From contig JACPEJ010000004.1 of the NCBI GenBank assembly GCA_016183565.1, positions 41,178 through 105,177 of the forward strand: 64,000 bases of DNA, read 5' to 3'. The notes below the pieces were generated by a model. The model saw only the letters and a program-made list of their open reading frames with translations. It was not told the origin of the DNA and did no database searches. Positions 14,063-51,924 of the stretch are shown here, in pieces. The position numbers were made by a program, and so were the translations under genes. Position 1 is the first letter of the stretch. The number at the start of each line of letters is the position of its first letter. This DNA is from Candidatus Blackburnbacteria bacterium (GTDB taxonomy: Bacteria; Patescibacteriota; Microgenomatia; UBA8517; UBA10165).

Positions 14063-14115
14063 CCCGATGTGCAAAGCTATTCCACTCCCGATGTGGAATA
14101 GGTTGACACGTCGGG
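14063..14115. repeat. nested-hairpin repeat element, copy A
   Basis: cccgatgtgcaaagctattccactcccgatgtggaataggttgacacgtcggg; related copies at 43334 and 50335. Confidence 0.7.
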
Positions 14116-14297
14116 GTAAACATCATCGCTGTGGCTGCTTCATGGCTTGGGTGGGCGCCTTTCTGGGCCGAGTCAATGCGGGCGATTCCCCTGCGGCCAG
14201 GCGACCAAGGCCAGTTGAGTACTAAAACTCGAACCCCTGTTTGGTGTAGGTGTTGACAGTTTCATGTCAACACACAAACACCAGGCGGGGGTGTTTT

Positions 14298-14723
14298 TTA
14301 CTGGGCGGGGTTTTTGCCAAGTTCTGTGTGGGTTTGCTTTCTTTTTAGGAATCCAGCGAATCCTCTTAACATTCCTTTTGGTCTTTTCCCTTGTGGTTCT
14401 TCTGGAGCAGGTTGTATCCGAGTCGCCTCTTCTTGTTTTTTCTGGGCATATTCCTCCTCTTGTCTACCAACTATTTCCTGTTTTTCCCTCTCTTCGGTTA
14501 TCTGAGAAACTTCTTCTCGGAGTTCGCGCAATCTAGCCCTTGACCTTGCTTCTGTGATTTCTTCTGGAATAGCTTGTTCTTTTACAGAGAGAGGTTGCTG
14601 GGCTTCCATGCTTGGTTTTACATTAGCTCCGCTTAGTTGCTCAGTAGCTGTTTTGACAATTTGCGAGGGCTCTTCAAATGGATTATATATCTTTGTTTTG
14701 GGTGATTTAGAAAAACTTTGCAT
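14298..14723 (-). CDS. hypothetical charged low-complexity protein
   Basis: 141-aa E/K/Q-rich ORF downstream of recR. Confidence 0.35.
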   Translation of the reverse strand: MQSFSKSPKTKIYNPFEEPSQIVKTATEQLSGANVKPSMEAQQPLSVKEQAIPEEITEARSRARLRELREEVSQITEEREKQEIVGRQEEEYAQKKQEEATRIQPAPEEPQGKRPKGMLRGFAGFLKRKQTHTELGKNPAQ

Positions 14724-14726
14724 TCT

Positions 14727-48555: not shown

Positions 48556-49617
48556 CCCACCGGTAACGCGCACGCGTTCTAGAAGTTTTGGGTTATCCAA
48601 AACTTTTCCTGTTCCTCTTGCAACTGCTGTTAGAGGGTCCTCACAAACCCAGACTGGAATTTTTACAGCTTCAGAAACCAACTGATCAAGGCCAACTATT
48701 AGGGCTCCTCCTCCTGCAAGAACTATTCCTTTTTCCATAATATCGGCAACAAGCTCGGGTGGAGCTTCTTCTAGGGTATCGGCAATTTTTTCTACGACTT
48801 GTTGTAAAACAGAAGAGAGTGCTTCCCTGACTTCTTGAGAGGAAACTTTTATGGATTTGGGCAATCCGGTTTCTAGGTCGCGGCCGCGAACAACAAAATG
48901 CTTCTCGATTTTTTGCGATACTGCTGTTCCGATTTCAACTTTTAACTCTTCGGCAGTAGTTCGCCCAACAAGAAGTGAGTAACGGTTTCGGAGATAGGAG
49001 ATCATTGCCTCGTCCATTTCATCTCCTGCAACTCTTAAGCCTCTGTTTAAAACTATTCCGCCTAAGGATATAAGTGCAATTTCAGTTGTTCCTCCACCCA
49101 TGTCAACAACAAAAACTCCTCCTGCGTCTTCAACATTTAAACCTGCGCCAATTGCTGCTGCCATTGGTTCCTCGATAAGATATGCTTTTCTGGCACCAGC
49201 TGATAATGCTGCATCTTGGACTGCTCGTCTTTCAACTTCTGTAACACCTGAGGGAATTCCCACAACTACTCGCGGTTTGGGGATTTTGGGCATGCCCAAT
49301 CGCTGTGCACCTTGAGGTGTTTCGTGAATTTTTTTAATAAAATAGGTAAGCATTGCTGTGGTTGCATCAAAATCAGCAATTACTCCGTCCTTAAGGGGTC
49401 TTATGGCTTCAATTGTTTGAGGGGTCCGGCCCTCCATTTTTTTAGCGGACGAACCAATTGCTAAAATTTCTTTGGTTTTTTTATGCCTTGCAACAACTGA
49501 GGGTTCGCGGATTACAATTCCTTTGCCTTTTACATAAACTAATGTATTGGCAGTACCAAGGTCGATGCCAATATCGTAACTAAATAGACCAAAGAAGGAG
49601 TCGAACATAATTTTCAA
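48547..49617 (-). CDS. mreB: rod shape-determining protein MreB (actin homologue)
   Basis: IGIDLGTANTLVYVKGKGIV phosphate-1; DMGGGTTEIALIS; actin-fold motifs. Confidence 0.9.
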   Translation of the reverse strand: MKIMFDSFFGLFSYDIGIDLGTANTLVYVKGKGIVIREPSVVARHKKTKEILAIGSSAKKMEGRTPQTIEAIRPLKDGVIADFDATTAMLTYFIKKIHETPQGAQRLGMPKIPKPRVVVGIPSGVTEVERRAVQDAALSAGARKAYLIEEPMAAAIGAGLNVEDAGGVFVVDMGGGTTEIALISLGGIVLNRGLRVAGDEMDEAMISYLRNRYSLLVGRTTAEELKVEIGTAVSQKIEKHFVVRGRDLETGLPKSIKVSSQEVREALSSVLQQVVEKIADTLEEAPPELVADIMEKGIVLAGGGALIVGLDQLVSEAVKIPVWVCEDPLTAVARGTGKVLDNPKLLERVRVTGGLR

Positions 49618-49690
49618 TTTTCAATTTTCAATGAAATTTGATCAATTGATCAAATGAAAATTCATTGAAATTTTGCTTTGTAGTATAGCA
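49611..49690. repeat. AT-rich palindromic intergenic element
   Basis: taattttcaattttcaattttcaatgaaatttgatcaattgatcaaatgaaaattcattgaaatttt. Confidence 0.7.
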
Positions 49691-49716
49691 TAGCTTGAGG
49701 TGTTACTCTTACCTAT

Positions 49717-51924
49717 ATGATACTCCATATGTATCGATTTGCAGACAAGCTTCAGTCTTTCTCTCTCTACGCTATCTTTGCCATAGTCCCCCTTTTCTTT
49801 TCTTCTTTAAATTCTGAGCTTTTTGAGATACCGAAGATGGCGTTTGTTTATGTGTTTGCGATTCTTGTGCTTTTTTCTTGGGCAATAAAATCTTTGCTTC
49901 AAGGAAGGTTTCTCTTTAGACGGACACCACTAGATATACCTTTAGCTATTTTTTTATTAGCATTATCACTATCCACTCTTACTTCTATCGATAGGTATAC
50001 TTCTTTTTGGGGATATTACTCTCGACCTTTTGGCGGTTTTGTGTCGACAGCGACATTTGTCGTTCTTTATTGGGCGTATGTGTCTAATATGGGGAAACGG
50101 GAAACTGAAAACGTGATACGGATTTTAATCGGATCGGCAGTGGTAATTTCGATTTGGGGAATTTTAGAGCATTTTGGGGTAAGTCCAAGCTGTGTGATTT
50201 TAAAAGGCGAGTTTAATGTTTCTTGTTGGGCACCTGATGTAAGGGCTCGAGTTTTTGCAACTTTTGGGCAGCCAAATTGGATGGCAGCTTGGTTGGTTGC
50301 TGTGGCACCACTTTCTTGGCAGCTAATCCTTAGGTGCAAAGCTATTCCACTCCCGATGTGGAATACGTTGGCACATCGGGAGATACTATCACGGTCTGCT
50401 CTCTATATCTCGCCCTTTTTGTTATTCACAGCAATCCTTTACACAAAGTCGCGTTCTGGCTTGGTAGCATTTGGTGTTTCGTTTGTAATCTTTTGGTCTT
50501 TCGTGTTTTTCCACCAGTCTCGCAAGGTGAGACCTTGCAAGCCCAGATGTCAGTCTTTTTTGCTAATTGTTACTTCTTATCTTTTGCTTGTTGCCTTTTC
50601 CGGTTCGCCATGGTCACCGAGTATCACACAATTGTTTGGGGGGAAATCAAAAAATATTGACCTGCGGGTTGCAAGTAATGTTGTGGGCAATGAGTCATCT
50701 CCATCTCCACCCTCGGGTGGAACTGATTCTTTTGCCATAAGAAAAATAGTTTGGAAGGGTGCAATAGATATTTGGAAACATTACCCCATCTTAGGTTCCG
50801 GAGTTGAAACTTTTGCGTACACTTATTACAACTTCCGTCCACAAGAACATAACTATACTTCTGAGTGGGATCTTTTATATAACAAGGCACACAATGAATA
50901 TCTACATTATCTAGCTAATACGGGTCTAGTAGGTTTAGGTAGTTATCTTTTGCTGATTGGTGCCTTCCTGTGGAATATCAAAAAAAGGGTGCTTCCTCCG
51001 GAAGGGCAAATATTAAAAATCAAAAATATAAATCAAAATCTAAAAAATTTTTTCACTTTGAATTTTGCACTTTTATCTGGCTTTGTCAGTATACTCATAA
51101 CCAACTCCGTCAGTTTTTCTACTGTCTCTATTGCCACTTTGTTTTTTCTGTTTCCTGCAATGGCAATAACGCTAAAAAGCGACTCGTTAGCTCGCAAGCT
51201 CGAAACTCGAAAAAATAACGAGTCACGAGCTGACAAGTTACGACTCCTCTCTCTACTCTTTCCCCTTCTTGTTGTGTGTTATTTATTATTTGTTACCTAT
51301 CGCTTTTGGTACGCTGATACTCTTTATAAGAAAGCAGTAGATCTTGTTGAGCAGGGTGAAGGAAACCAATCAAGTATTTATCTTGAGCAAGCTTTGAAAA
51401 TGCGCCCAAATGAGCCTCGTTATCTTGATAAACTTGCTTCATCAACTTCTATTGTGGCTGCCTATCTTTCTGAGGATGCACAGAAACCAAAAGAAGCTAA
51501 GGAGTTAGCGGAGGTTTCGGAAAGATTCTCAAACTCTGCGCTTATTATATCCCCTTATAATGTTCAGTTTTGGTCAAATCGTGCCATTTATTTTAAGCGG
51601 CTTGCAGCAATTGAGCCTAAGTATCTGCTACTTGCAGTTGAGGCTTTGGAGAAGGCAGCCAGACTTGCACCTACTGATCCTAAAATCCACTATAACCTTG
51701 GGGTGCTTTACTCAAGGAGTGGTGACTTGCAAAAAGCCTTGGCTACGCTCCAAAAATCAGTTGAATTAAAGACAGATTATTATGATGCAAGAGTTGGTCT
51801 TGCAGAGTTGTATCTTGAAAATGGTGAAAAAGAGAAAGCAATTAACGAGTTGGAGTTTGTTTTGAAGAATATTAATCCGGCGGATAAGGATGTTAAAGAG
51901 GTGTTGGAGAAATTGAAAAAATAA
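49717..51924 (+). CDS. O-antigen ligase (Wzy_C)-like polytopic membrane protein with C-terminal TPR repeats
   Basis: Wzy_C-like loop (KAHNEYLHYLANTGLVGLGSYLLL); at least 10 TM helices; C-terminal TPR units (YNLGVLYSRSGDLQKALATLQKSVEL...). Confidence 0.65.
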   Translation: MILHMYRFADKLQSFSLYAIFAIVPLFFSSLNSELFEIPKMAFVYVFAILVLFSWAIKSLLQGRFLFRRTPLDIPLAIFLLALSLSTLTSIDRYTSFWGYYSRPFGGFVSTATFVVLYWAYVSNMGKRETENVIRILIGSAVVISIWGILEHFGVSPSCVILKGEFNVSCWAPDVRARVFATFGQPNWMAAWLVAVAPLSWQLILRCKAIPLPMWNTLAHREILSRSALYISPFLLFTAILYTKSRSGLVAFGVSFVIFWSFVFFHQSRKVRPCKPRCQSFLLIVTSYLLLVAFSGSPWSPSITQLFGGKSKNIDLRVASNVVGNESSPSPPSGGTDSFAIRKIVWKGAIDIWKHYPILGSGVETFAYTYYNFRPQEHNYTSEWDLLYNKAHNEYLHYLANTGLVGLGSYLLLIGAFLWNIKKRVLPPEGQILKIKNINQNLKNFFTLNFALLSGFVSILITNSVSFSTVSIATLFFLFPAMAITLKSDSLARKLETRKNNESRADKLRLLSLLFPLLVVCYLLFVTYRFWYADTLYKKAVDLVEQGEGNQSSIYLEQALKMRPNEPRYLDKLASSTSIVAAYLSEDAQKPKEAKELAEVSERFSNSALIISPYNVQFWSNRAIYFKRLAAIEPKYLLLAVEALEKAARLAPTDPKIHYNLGVLYSRSGDLQKALATLQKSVELKTDYYDARVGLAELYLENGEKEKAINELEFVLKNINPADKDVKEVLEKLKK
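50335..50390. repeat. nested-hairpin repeat element, copy C (inside CDS)
   Basis: tgcaaagctattccactcccgatgtggaatacgttggcacatcggg; translated in-frame as CKAIPLPMWNTLAHRE. Confidence 0.7.
50517..50543. repeat. palindromic cgcaagg element inside CDS
   Basis: agtctcgcaaggtgagaccttgcaagc; translated as QSRKVRPCKP. Confidence 0.6.

Follow-up and report, generated by a model that had tools for sequence, protein, structure and literature searches.

A nested-hairpin repeat of a Candidatus Blackburnbacteria genome, probably an atypical REP-like element with a RAYT-type partner in related genomes

Introduction

We describe a short DNA repeat that occurs in three copies in a 64,000-nt stretch (referred to here as ‘the window’) of a metagenome-assembled genome (MAG) of Candidatus Blackburnbacteria, from the Microgenomates group within the candidate phyla radiation (CPR). 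The repeat unit is an inner hairpin nested between two short inverted arms. In related genomes, similar hairpins flank genes for Y1 tyrosine transposases. We consider it probable that the element is an atypical repetitive extragenic palindromic (REP)-like repeat of Microgenomates-group CPR bacteria, and that its partner, in related genomes, is an enzyme of the REP-associated tyrosine transposase (RAYT) type. A first-pass annotation, made by a model from the letters of the window alone, had proposed a small mobile hairpin element among other possibilities, and this proposal is supported: related copies flank Y1 genes, lone copies are dispersed, and some of these lie in frame within genes.

REPs accompanied by a RAYT, and palindromic insertions read in frame, are already known as a kind of system. 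To our knowledge, work on REPs and RAYTs has dealt almost entirely with Proteobacteria and Cyanobacteria. Full-text literature searches found no description of REP-like repeats in CPR bacteria; a 2026 preprint goes no further than mentioning a RAYT KEGG Orthology (KO) match in an archaeon. What is new here is the host group, the lack of the canonical GT[AG]G tag, the nested layout of three boxes in which loop and arms covary, and the link to a class of RAYTs reported to be without REPs.

The repeat unit in the window

A 45-nt core occurs on the + strand at 14070 (with 3 mismatches), 43341 and 50335 (both exact), where 100 dinucleotide-preserving shuffles gave 0 matches expected by chance. The three-copy repeat of the first-pass annotation is therefore real, the units starting within 1–7 nt of where it had placed them. 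We call them copies A, B and C (Table 1). The full unit, read from copy B, is CCCGATGTGC-AAAGC-TATTCCAC-TCCCGAT-GTGGAATA-CGTTG-GCACATCGG, an 8-bp inner hairpin nested within a 9–10-bp outer stem. As had been claimed, the inner stem (ATTCCAC/GTGGAAT) pairs perfectly, and it does so in each of the three copies. The outer stem (CCGATGTGC/GCACATCGG) is perfect in copy B but not in the others. Copy C lacks the 5' arm (CCTTAG stands in place of CCCGAT), and its outer stem is reduced to GTGC/GCAC; the 3' arm pairs with the loop region instead (CTCCCGATGTG/CACATCGGGAG, 11 bp). Copy A differs from copy B in three ways, each of them one-sided: a T-A pair has become T.G, an extra C-G pair has been added at the base of the inner stem, and the top C-G pair of the outer stem is broken. 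The compensatory changes reported for copy A thus fall away, and the window as a whole holds no compensatory pair. The fold is strong, with z-scores against shuffled sequence, on the + strand, of -6.0 (A), -5.8 (B) and -3.2 (C).

The 9-mer box CCCGATGTG appears three times per unit: as the 5' arm, again across the loop and the first part of the 3' half-stem, and in inverted form as the 3' arm. Because it recurs in the loop, the unit has three boxes. The core 8-mer, CCGATGTG, matches the window 8 times, where 0.8 matches would be expected. When the family's covariance model (R1) was run over the whole window with filters off, it found no copy beyond A, B and C; its only other match, at 32237–32295, is marginal (15 bits). 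Two copies are intergenic and one is intragenic. None of the window copies has a second unit within 100 nt: these are single units with no inverted partner, and a REP doublet forming hairpins (REPIN) or a bacterial interspersed mosaic element (BIME) was accordingly rejected. Copy A occupies the spacer between cysS and an ORF (open reading frame) of 141 aa. It and copy B are antisense to the neighbouring genes; copy C is sense.

A short-read contig seen in 5 samples (L050, equivalent to window positions 14086–15454) has one end inside the copy A hairpin, at 14086, and the other within a 32-nt palindrome of a second family, described below. Both repeats, it follows, break assemblies of the source organism. 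Repeats of this kind break short-read assemblies of CPR genomes and create spurious ORFs; the peptide read from copy C, which had been noticed in spurious ORFs at the other two copies, is indeed present at A and B. Beside copy A, and upstream of cysS, lies a stretch of 56% GC (14120–14297) with no Rfam match, and the whole spacer between cysS and the 141-aa ORF, copy A included, folds better than shuffles (z -3.3). Farther on, the dnaX ORF contains a GC-rich, low-complexity insert at ~16200–16400.

Related repeats in other genomes

The exact 21-nt inner hairpin had 0 matches among species-representative genomes. The exact 21-nt core was found elsewhere in one metagenome contig only, L001, as two copies. 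A scan of genome representatives for the stem alone (TATTCCAC-N7-GTGGAATAGC) returned 32 loci, of which ~17 would be expected from pattern length alone by our own estimate, which assumes equal base frequencies. More than half carry an extended signature: (A/G)AAGC at the hairpin foot, and short inverted arms. Many of the records are titled as Levyi-, Woese-, Roizman- or Gottesmanbacteria, or as Microgenomates MAGs; some are titled ‘uncultured Gammaproteobacteria’, a label that is the record title only and is unconfirmed. All 17 aligned members have (A/G)AAGCTA at one side of the foot and TA(C/G)GT at the opposite side, and none has a 5' GT[AG]G tag there; GTGG occurs only inside the 3' half-stem. 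The family comprises units of ~50 nt, each with a conserved hairpin, (A/G)AAGCTATTCCAC-N7-GTGGAATA, at its centre and two short inverted arms flanking it.

Lone copies recognized by R1 (in L041, L034, L008/L027/L016 and L002/L017) lie kilobases from the transposase gene discussed next, or on other contigs of the same MAGs. In L001, L017, L041 (upstream versus downstream copy) and L014 the loop is flipped, as is expected if a perfect stem promotes small inversions. Viral contigs gave 0 matches to the element and only two distant relatives of the Y1 protein, which indicates no phage link.

RAYT-like genes flanked by the hairpins

On L001, the two copies of the element flank a 222-aa ORF that matches Pfam Y1_Tnp (30.6 bits; cutoff 23). 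In 6 contigs, each from a different sample, the gene for its product, P0121, has pyrH on one side and xerC on the other, and with the same neighbours in all six it looks like a fixed locus, not a multicopy insertion sequence (IS). Copies flank the gene in L035–L040 as well. When the L001 protein served as a tblastn query, homologs lying immediately next to the hairpin came up in L013, L004 and L014, and L030 gave a more distant homolog; L004 and L014 carry two divergent paralogs each. Four further homologs, fetched independently of the element (L041–L044), have hairpins on both flanks. Hairpins stand on both sides of 9 of the 10 homologous genes examined, namely those of L013, L030 and L041–L044, both genes of L004, and one of the two in L014.

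At most of these nine genes, the flanking hairpins are of the TTCCAC/GTGGAA type. Those of L041 and L043 belong to it, in degenerate form in L043; those of L044 have a variant stem (TTTCAC/GTGTAAA) with CCCGATGTG-type arms; and those of L042, whose Y1 homolog is at 1330–2200, are different altogether (GCACCTTTCAGGTGC). It looks as if every gene lineage had a hairpin of its own, as is the case in co-evolving REP/RAYT pairs. Different hairpins were also seen at other Y1 loci: GGGTGCGAAGCTAGTCCACCCTAAGGGTG, in inverted pairs, at L004 3400–4230, and AAGGTTGGACCTTA at L030 6180–7080. In L041, L043 and L044, the upstream copy keeps the hairpin and 3' arm, and the downstream copy is a 5' arm plus hairpin (with, in L041, an additional box resembling the 3' arm), so that an arm faces the gene on each side. 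In L041 and L044, the loops of the upstream and downstream copies are flipped relative to each other.

At least 7,856 homologs at E ≤ 1e-5 make this protein family a very large one, and the contigs examined are mostly from CPR bacteria; a CPR gene family of this size is now linked with one particular hairpin repeat. The motifs YHxxNRG, MPNHFHLL, GPLFQG and SRYIHLNP are invariant in the proteins (alignments A3/A4). The best NCBIfam match is REP_Tyr_transpos, ‘REP-associated tyrosine transposase’ (E 8e-14). An AlphaFold2 model (pLDDT 84, pTM 0.83) has as its top fold match in the PDB 4ER8 (E 8e-5, probability 1.0), the E. coli RAYT, YafM, bound to a REP hairpin; the runners-up are IS200, ISDra2 and IS608 transposases (E 0.02–0.06). 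A PDB search by sequence gave weak HUH-motif matches only. The Y---NP motif, the best NCBIfam model and the fold match together indicate that the partner enzyme, as modelled, is RAYT-like, a class-2 HUH/Y1 protein.

Y---NP distinguishes the class-2 relatives of TnpA(REP)/RAYT from IS200 enzymes, which have Y---Q (Quentin et al. 2018, PMC6006769). Within class 2, subclass 2.1 is defined by NH[YF]H, FQ and Y[IV]HLNP; it is the second-largest subclass, equates to RAYT group 1 (Bertels et al. 2017) and to the TIRYT/TIRtrons (Di Nocera et al. 2013), and is reported to lack REP-like hairpins (PMC6006769, with its Table 1). At the level of motifs, our enzyme matches TnpAY1 subclass 2.1: it has NHFH, FQ and YIHLNP, is of similar size (222 aa versus a median of 238), and is flanked by inverted repeats. 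Known terminal inverted repeats (TIRs) of the subclass share GGGGWSAS, whereas the flanks described here lack it; they are TTCCAC/GTGGAA hairpins with CCCGATGTG-type arms, and they are dispersed as lone copies, too.

Covariation and alternative pairing

Covariation was assessed in alignment A2, whose 17 members come from different genomes, were partly chosen by eye and are mutually related, so that the numbers that follow are indicative, not probabilities. The nested structure is 89.8% paired. In the outer stem, 6 of 10 pairs change on both sides, and 0 of 500 shuffles reach the observed covariation score; the inner stem is near-invariant, partly because the search fixed it. An alternative helix, in which the loop plus GTG pairs with the 3' arm, is 89.5% paired, with 4 of its 9 pairs changed on both sides, and similarity between loop and arm is above that of all 200 permutations. 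The test of stem covariation that the first-pass annotation had suggested thus comes out positively across genomes, in that outer arms and loop change sequence together. Its idea that the structure is selected holds up at the level of the family, where the arms covary, but not for the reason given, the changes in copy A.

G.T and A.C pairs stand at 18:2 on the alternative helix and at 17:10 on the outer helix. The excess of G.T implies that one strand folds, the strand reading AGCTATTCCAC, which is the + strand of the window. This strand may fold as RNA or as single-stranded DNA; the data fit both. Taken together, the inner hairpin and the loop–arm pairing would form a plausible H-type pseudoknot (S1 8 bp, L1 1 nt, S2 6 bp, L3 10 nt).

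Copies in frame within genes

Copy C was said to be translated within a wzy-like gene, and it does lie in frame at codons 207–222, where it encodes CKAIPLPMWNTLAHRE, in an ORF that NCBI lists as a protein. The Wzy-like and PBP2 proteins each match an NCBI entry at 100% identity, both entries coming from a contig of 127,193 nt. When 17 Wzy-like homologs are aligned, the peptide falls in a hypervariable loop between the invariant W201 and A239. The closest homolog (P0002, 55% identical, on contig L034) has CQASPLPKWITLTLRE at the same site, encoded by a diverged copy of the element with the same 5' truncation (AGGTGTCAAGCTAGTCCACTCCCGAAGTGGATTACATTGACACTTCGGGAA). Relative to copy C, a T>A change in the loop of the L034 copy is matched by A>T in the arm, and in one inner-stem pair both partners differ, T-A having become G.T. 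Aligned codon by codon, the two are 81% identical in the element, and 0.78–0.80 at third positions, as against 59% and 0.38 for the gene overall and a third-position identity of 0.33 in the best-conserved segment of the protein. What has been kept is therefore the nucleotide sequence, not the peptide. Selection on structure, gene conversion from other copies, or re-insertion could account for this. In the loops of other wzy homologs, the orthologous site has no element.

Two further copies are read in frame and in the sense direction. One, in the uvrB gene of a Woesebacteria MAG (L026), encodes SKAIPPLGWNRYDTSG in the same frame as copy C; the other, in the argS gene of a Patescibacteria MAG (L024), is in another frame, at the junction with the anticodon-binding domain. 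The repeats thus add peptides, predicted from the genes, to essential proteins (Wzy-like, UvrB and ArgRS). We know of no dedicated transposase for the Rickettsia palindromic elements (RPEs), which are comparable in this respect. Precedents in the literature are RPEs and in-frame REPs, the latter notably in genes for Uvr proteins and tRNA synthetases (PMC3733652; PMC6006769). Like RPEs and the intragenic GTAG/CGTC REPs, the copies described here are palindromic insertions at positions of conserved genes where the protein tolerates them, and the hosts again include repair and tRNA-synthetase genes (uvrB and argS here; Uvr and tRNA synthetases in Di Nocera et al. 2013). RPEs differ in that they have no sequence relation to our repeat and are longer (RPE-1 is ~100–150 nt, versus ~50 nt).

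Copy B and the GC-rich island

Copy B begins 26 nt past the stop codon of the PBP2 gene, and a 13-nt tandem duplication (CATCGGTATGTCT, twice) spans the junction of its 3' end with the flank. The spacer between PBP2 and dprA varies among relatives. In L048 (PBP2 62% identical), it is 49 nt long and has no element; in L049, another Blackburnbacteria contig, it is ~3.9 kb, holds different genes, including a ParE/Phd pair, and again has no copy; in the window, it is 2.04 kb and holds copy B together with a GC-rich island (51% GC versus about 41%). The island is contained in a lineage-specific insertion that runs from dprA (start 41373) to copy B and PBP2, and its two ORFs (41938–42513 and 42821–43183) have no Pfam or PHROG match. 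These differences make the spacer a hotspot of variable gene content, with copy B at its PBP2 edge, and the repeats sit, accordingly, where gene content varies. Of the first-pass suggestion that the element marks the edges of variable regions, the part that stands is copy B and its 2-kb insertion relative to L048; at the opposite, dprA edge, R1 with filters off found neither a copy nor a half-copy. Two further GC-rich patches (50–54% against a 41% background) lie at 52–53 kb and 57–58 kb. The latter adjoins four tRNA genes (55786–57036), and tRNA genes are classic integration sites.

Weighing the REP-like interpretation

The element resembles REPs, REPINs and their RAYTs (E. coli REP with YafM; Pseudomonas REPINs) in several respects. 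It is a short palindromic repeat, apparently dispersed mostly between genes; in related contigs, copies flank a HUH/Y1 gene that seems to be single-copy and at a fixed locus, the layout of a REPtron; that gene encodes an enzyme with the class-2 Y---NP motif and a predicted RAYT-like fold; and the sequence of the repeat shifts with lineage, as in co-evolving REP/RAYT pairs. Sites that lack the element, in the PBP2–dprA spacer of L048 and in the loops of other wzy genes, we also count in favor.

A number of observations set it apart or weigh the other way. REPs are defined by a conserved 5' GT[AG]G tetranucleotide at the hairpin foot (PMC6006769, PMC3733652), and here the foot is (A/G)AAGCTA, with no such tag. 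The hairpin is nested between two arms, and its loop repeats the arm sequence. The units are singletons, not the inverted doublets of REPINs and BIMEs, and the host belongs to the CPR/Patescibacteria. Their density, only 3 copies per 64 kb, is modest. The enzyme's motif set matches the very subclass, 2.1, that is reported without REPs (PMC6006769), and its NCBIfam RAYT score of 51.7 bits is below the equivalog cutoff of 80. Tblastn found no Y1/RAYT gene in the 64-kb window, so that a cognate enzyme in the source organism is only presumed. The common site and truncation of copy C and its L034 counterpart are more readily explained by an old insertion passed on vertically than by recent hopping. 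Finally, we saw neither presence/absence polymorphism within species nor a target-site signature, so that mobility is deduced from distribution only.

By analogy with the characterized E. coli RAYT and the IS200/IS605 enzymes of IS608 and ISDra2, we infer that the enzyme mobilizes the repeat, that its substrate is single-stranded DNA, and that the source genome may encode such an enzyme. The E. coli RAYT and the IS608 and ISDra2 enzymes bind hairpins on single-stranded DNA, cut, and religate. In the same way, and as the most likely mechanism, single-stranded DNA would fold into the hairpin; the Y1 enzyme would recognize and bind it, cutting and rejoining nearby; this reaction would spread or maintain copies in trans; and the copies would persist where they are harmless, in intergenic spacers by gene ends and in tolerant protein surface loops, read in frame. 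The ends of IS200/IS605 elements (IS608, ISDra2) offer a close parallel: there, too, a hairpin serves a Y1 enzyme on single-stranded DNA (here by analogy), and a short sequence beside or within the hairpin is complementary to one nearby, like the guide tetranucleotide of IS608 and its cleavage site. They differ in that the partner here is the hairpin loop (6–9 nt), not a 4-nt guide at the foot, and in that our enzyme is of class 2, not class 1, has no tnpB, and is apparently not encoded by a multicopy gene.

Speculatively, and with odds clearly against it, the three-box layout might be a novel means by which a Y1 HUH enzyme sets its cut site, with the loop as an extended, programmable guide that pairs with the arm. 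The unit would alternate between a nested-hairpin state and a loop–arm state, the 5' arm, loop and 3' arm sharing an 8–9-mer that changes in all three together. Such a guide would be analogous to the 4-nt guide of IS608, but longer and differently placed. If true, TnpAY1 subclass 2.1 (RAYT group 1) would gain its first cognate DNA substrate. The covarying loop and arms amount, in any case, to a testable hypothesis of how such enzymes might choose their cleavage sites.

Alternative explanations

The foremost rival, which we regard as unlikely, is that the element is primarily a structured RNA: a terminator-like or 3'-stabilizing element, a cis-regulator or a small RNA, possibly an H-type pseudoknot, repeated because the RNA is useful. 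The strong fold favors it, as do the well-paired loop–3' arm helix with its two-sided changes and the G.T bias on that helix, which points to one folding strand. Several copies, among them copy B and one at L034 4818–4873, come just past stop codons, and published REPs have often been proposed to act as RNA (PMC3733652). But G.T pairs are tolerated in single-stranded DNA hairpins as well, no T run follows the hairpin in copies A, B or C, and a scan of the copy A region for intrinsic terminators and promoters found nothing. Copies occur in both orientations with regard to flanking genes (13 sense, 8 antisense), and show no significant bias with respect to these or to the majority coding strand. 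Nor does Rfam, which the first-pass annotation had named as the place where a known family might be recognized, hold one that matches: at the gathering threshold the window contains only 4 tRNAs, and in permissive mode the copy A and B regions return only sub-threshold noise from eukaryotic snoRNAs and miRNAs. A known RNA family was therefore rejected. An RNA role would, moreover, leave the tight flanking of Y1 genes unexplained. It could coexist with a REP-like role.

Less likely again is that the repeat is a miniature derivative of a true IS200/IS605 element, which kept the ends and lost the gene, and not a REP with a domesticated RAYT. The enzyme belongs to the same Pfam family, Y1_Tnp, and in L001 and L013 the gene and its two hairpins are on the same strand, an arrangement that resembles the left and right ends of IS200. 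Set against this are the Y---NP motif in place of Y---Q, the RAYT 4ER8 as top structural match, and the occurrence of P0121 at one conserved locus in all contigs seen. No tnpB is found among the neighbours of the Y1 genes; a lone unit has a single hairpin with an arm on either side and is no fusion of two hairpins from the ends; and the two copies flanking the second gene of L004, like those flanking the gene of L042, are each other's reverse complement, as reported for REPtrons. We rejected IS200/IS605 elements and their miniatures on the class-2 motif, the one P0121 locus seen and the lack of tnpB neighbours.

The least probable reading, which had also been proposed at the outset and for which we found no evidence, is a recombination or attachment site (attC- or dif-like) at which a tyrosine recombinase inserts cassettes such as the GC-rich island: copy B exactly abuts one edge of a 2-kb insertion, in a spacer whose content varies in another Blackburnbacteria as well, the Y1 gene of L001 adjoins a XerC/D-like integrase, and copy A adjoins the 56% GC stretch, but the island has the element at a single edge, the insertion in L049 has no copy (both of which argue against such a role), the integrase neighbour is not conserved in L041–L044, and the copies that lie in frame in uvrB, argS and wzy are without cargo. 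An integron attC in particular was rejected, since its R'/R'' boxes (GTTRRRY/RYYYAAC) are absent: GTTGGCA and GTTGACA fail GTTRRRY, and there is no RYYYAAC.

Other repeats and features of the window

Table 1. Positions, in window coordinates, of the repeat copies and of other features
Feature	Position	Strand	Remarks
Copy A, full unit	14063-14115	+	5' arm CCCGATGTG, inner hairpin TATTCCAC-TCCCGAT-GTGGAATA, 3' arm CACGTCGGG; R1 72.1 bits
Copy B, full unit	43334-43385	+	Outer and inner stems perfect; R1 76.6 bits
Copy C, 5'-truncated unit	50334-50380	+	R1 73.8 bits
Tandem duplication, 13 nt	43380-43405	+	CATCGGTATGTCT x2; spans junction of copy B 3' end and flank
Lineage-specific insertion	41374-43333		dprA to copy B/PBP2; comparison with L048
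Host gene of copy C	49717-51924	+	735 aa, Wzy_C + TPR, O-antigen-ligase-like; Pfam; NCBI protein P0001
cysS	12616-14013	-	Beside copy A
141-aa ORF	14298-14723	-	Beside copy A
PBP2 gene	43412-45259	-	Beside copy B
32-nt palindrome	5748-5779		
32-nt palindrome	15424-15455		One end of contig L050 lies within it
32-nt palindrome	29732-29763		
32-nt palindrome	41033-41064		
32-nt palindrome	42703-42734		
32-nt palindrome	50514-50545		
32-nt palindrome	54103-54134		
AT-rich block	17447-17588		
AT-rich block	25677-25787		
AT-rich block	45634-45772		
AT-rich block	49605-49673		
AT-rich block	62012-62122		
AGGTTGT array	5986-6025		
AGGTTGT array	7331-7391		
AGGTTGT array	63021-63060		
AGGTTGT array	63490-63519		
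GSDH-family remnant	3093-3417		Glucose/sorbosone dehydrogenase-like

A second palindromic family, of 32 nt (TTAGCCTTGCAAGGGGACGCCTTGCAAGGCTA), forms a 13-bp stem from a self-complementary box, CCTTGCAAGG, and has 7 copies in the window. Five of the seven are inside long ORFs: a P-type ATPase, the ORF at 29337–30665, dprA, the Wzy-like gene and the ORF at 53458–54426. The copy in the Wzy-like gene (aa 266–276) is absent from the L034 ortholog. A box similar to CCTTGCAAGG is present at the end of L001.

Five spacers contain AT-rich intergenic blocks of AATTTTCAAT, AATTTTTAAT and TTCAATGAAAATT motifs, which could be promoter or UP-like regions, or arrays of protein-binding sites. The heptamer AGGTTGT (GGTTGTAGGTTGTAG...) forms short arrays at four positions, and near one of these, at window position 7547, the Logan contig L046 ends. 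The GSDH-family remnant, the only stretch that the window and the L035 RAYT locus share in a synteny comparison, aligns with aa 41–89 and 316–369 of the L035 homolog side by side; as only these N- and C-terminal parts are represented, its sequence suggests a pseudogene with a large internal deletion.

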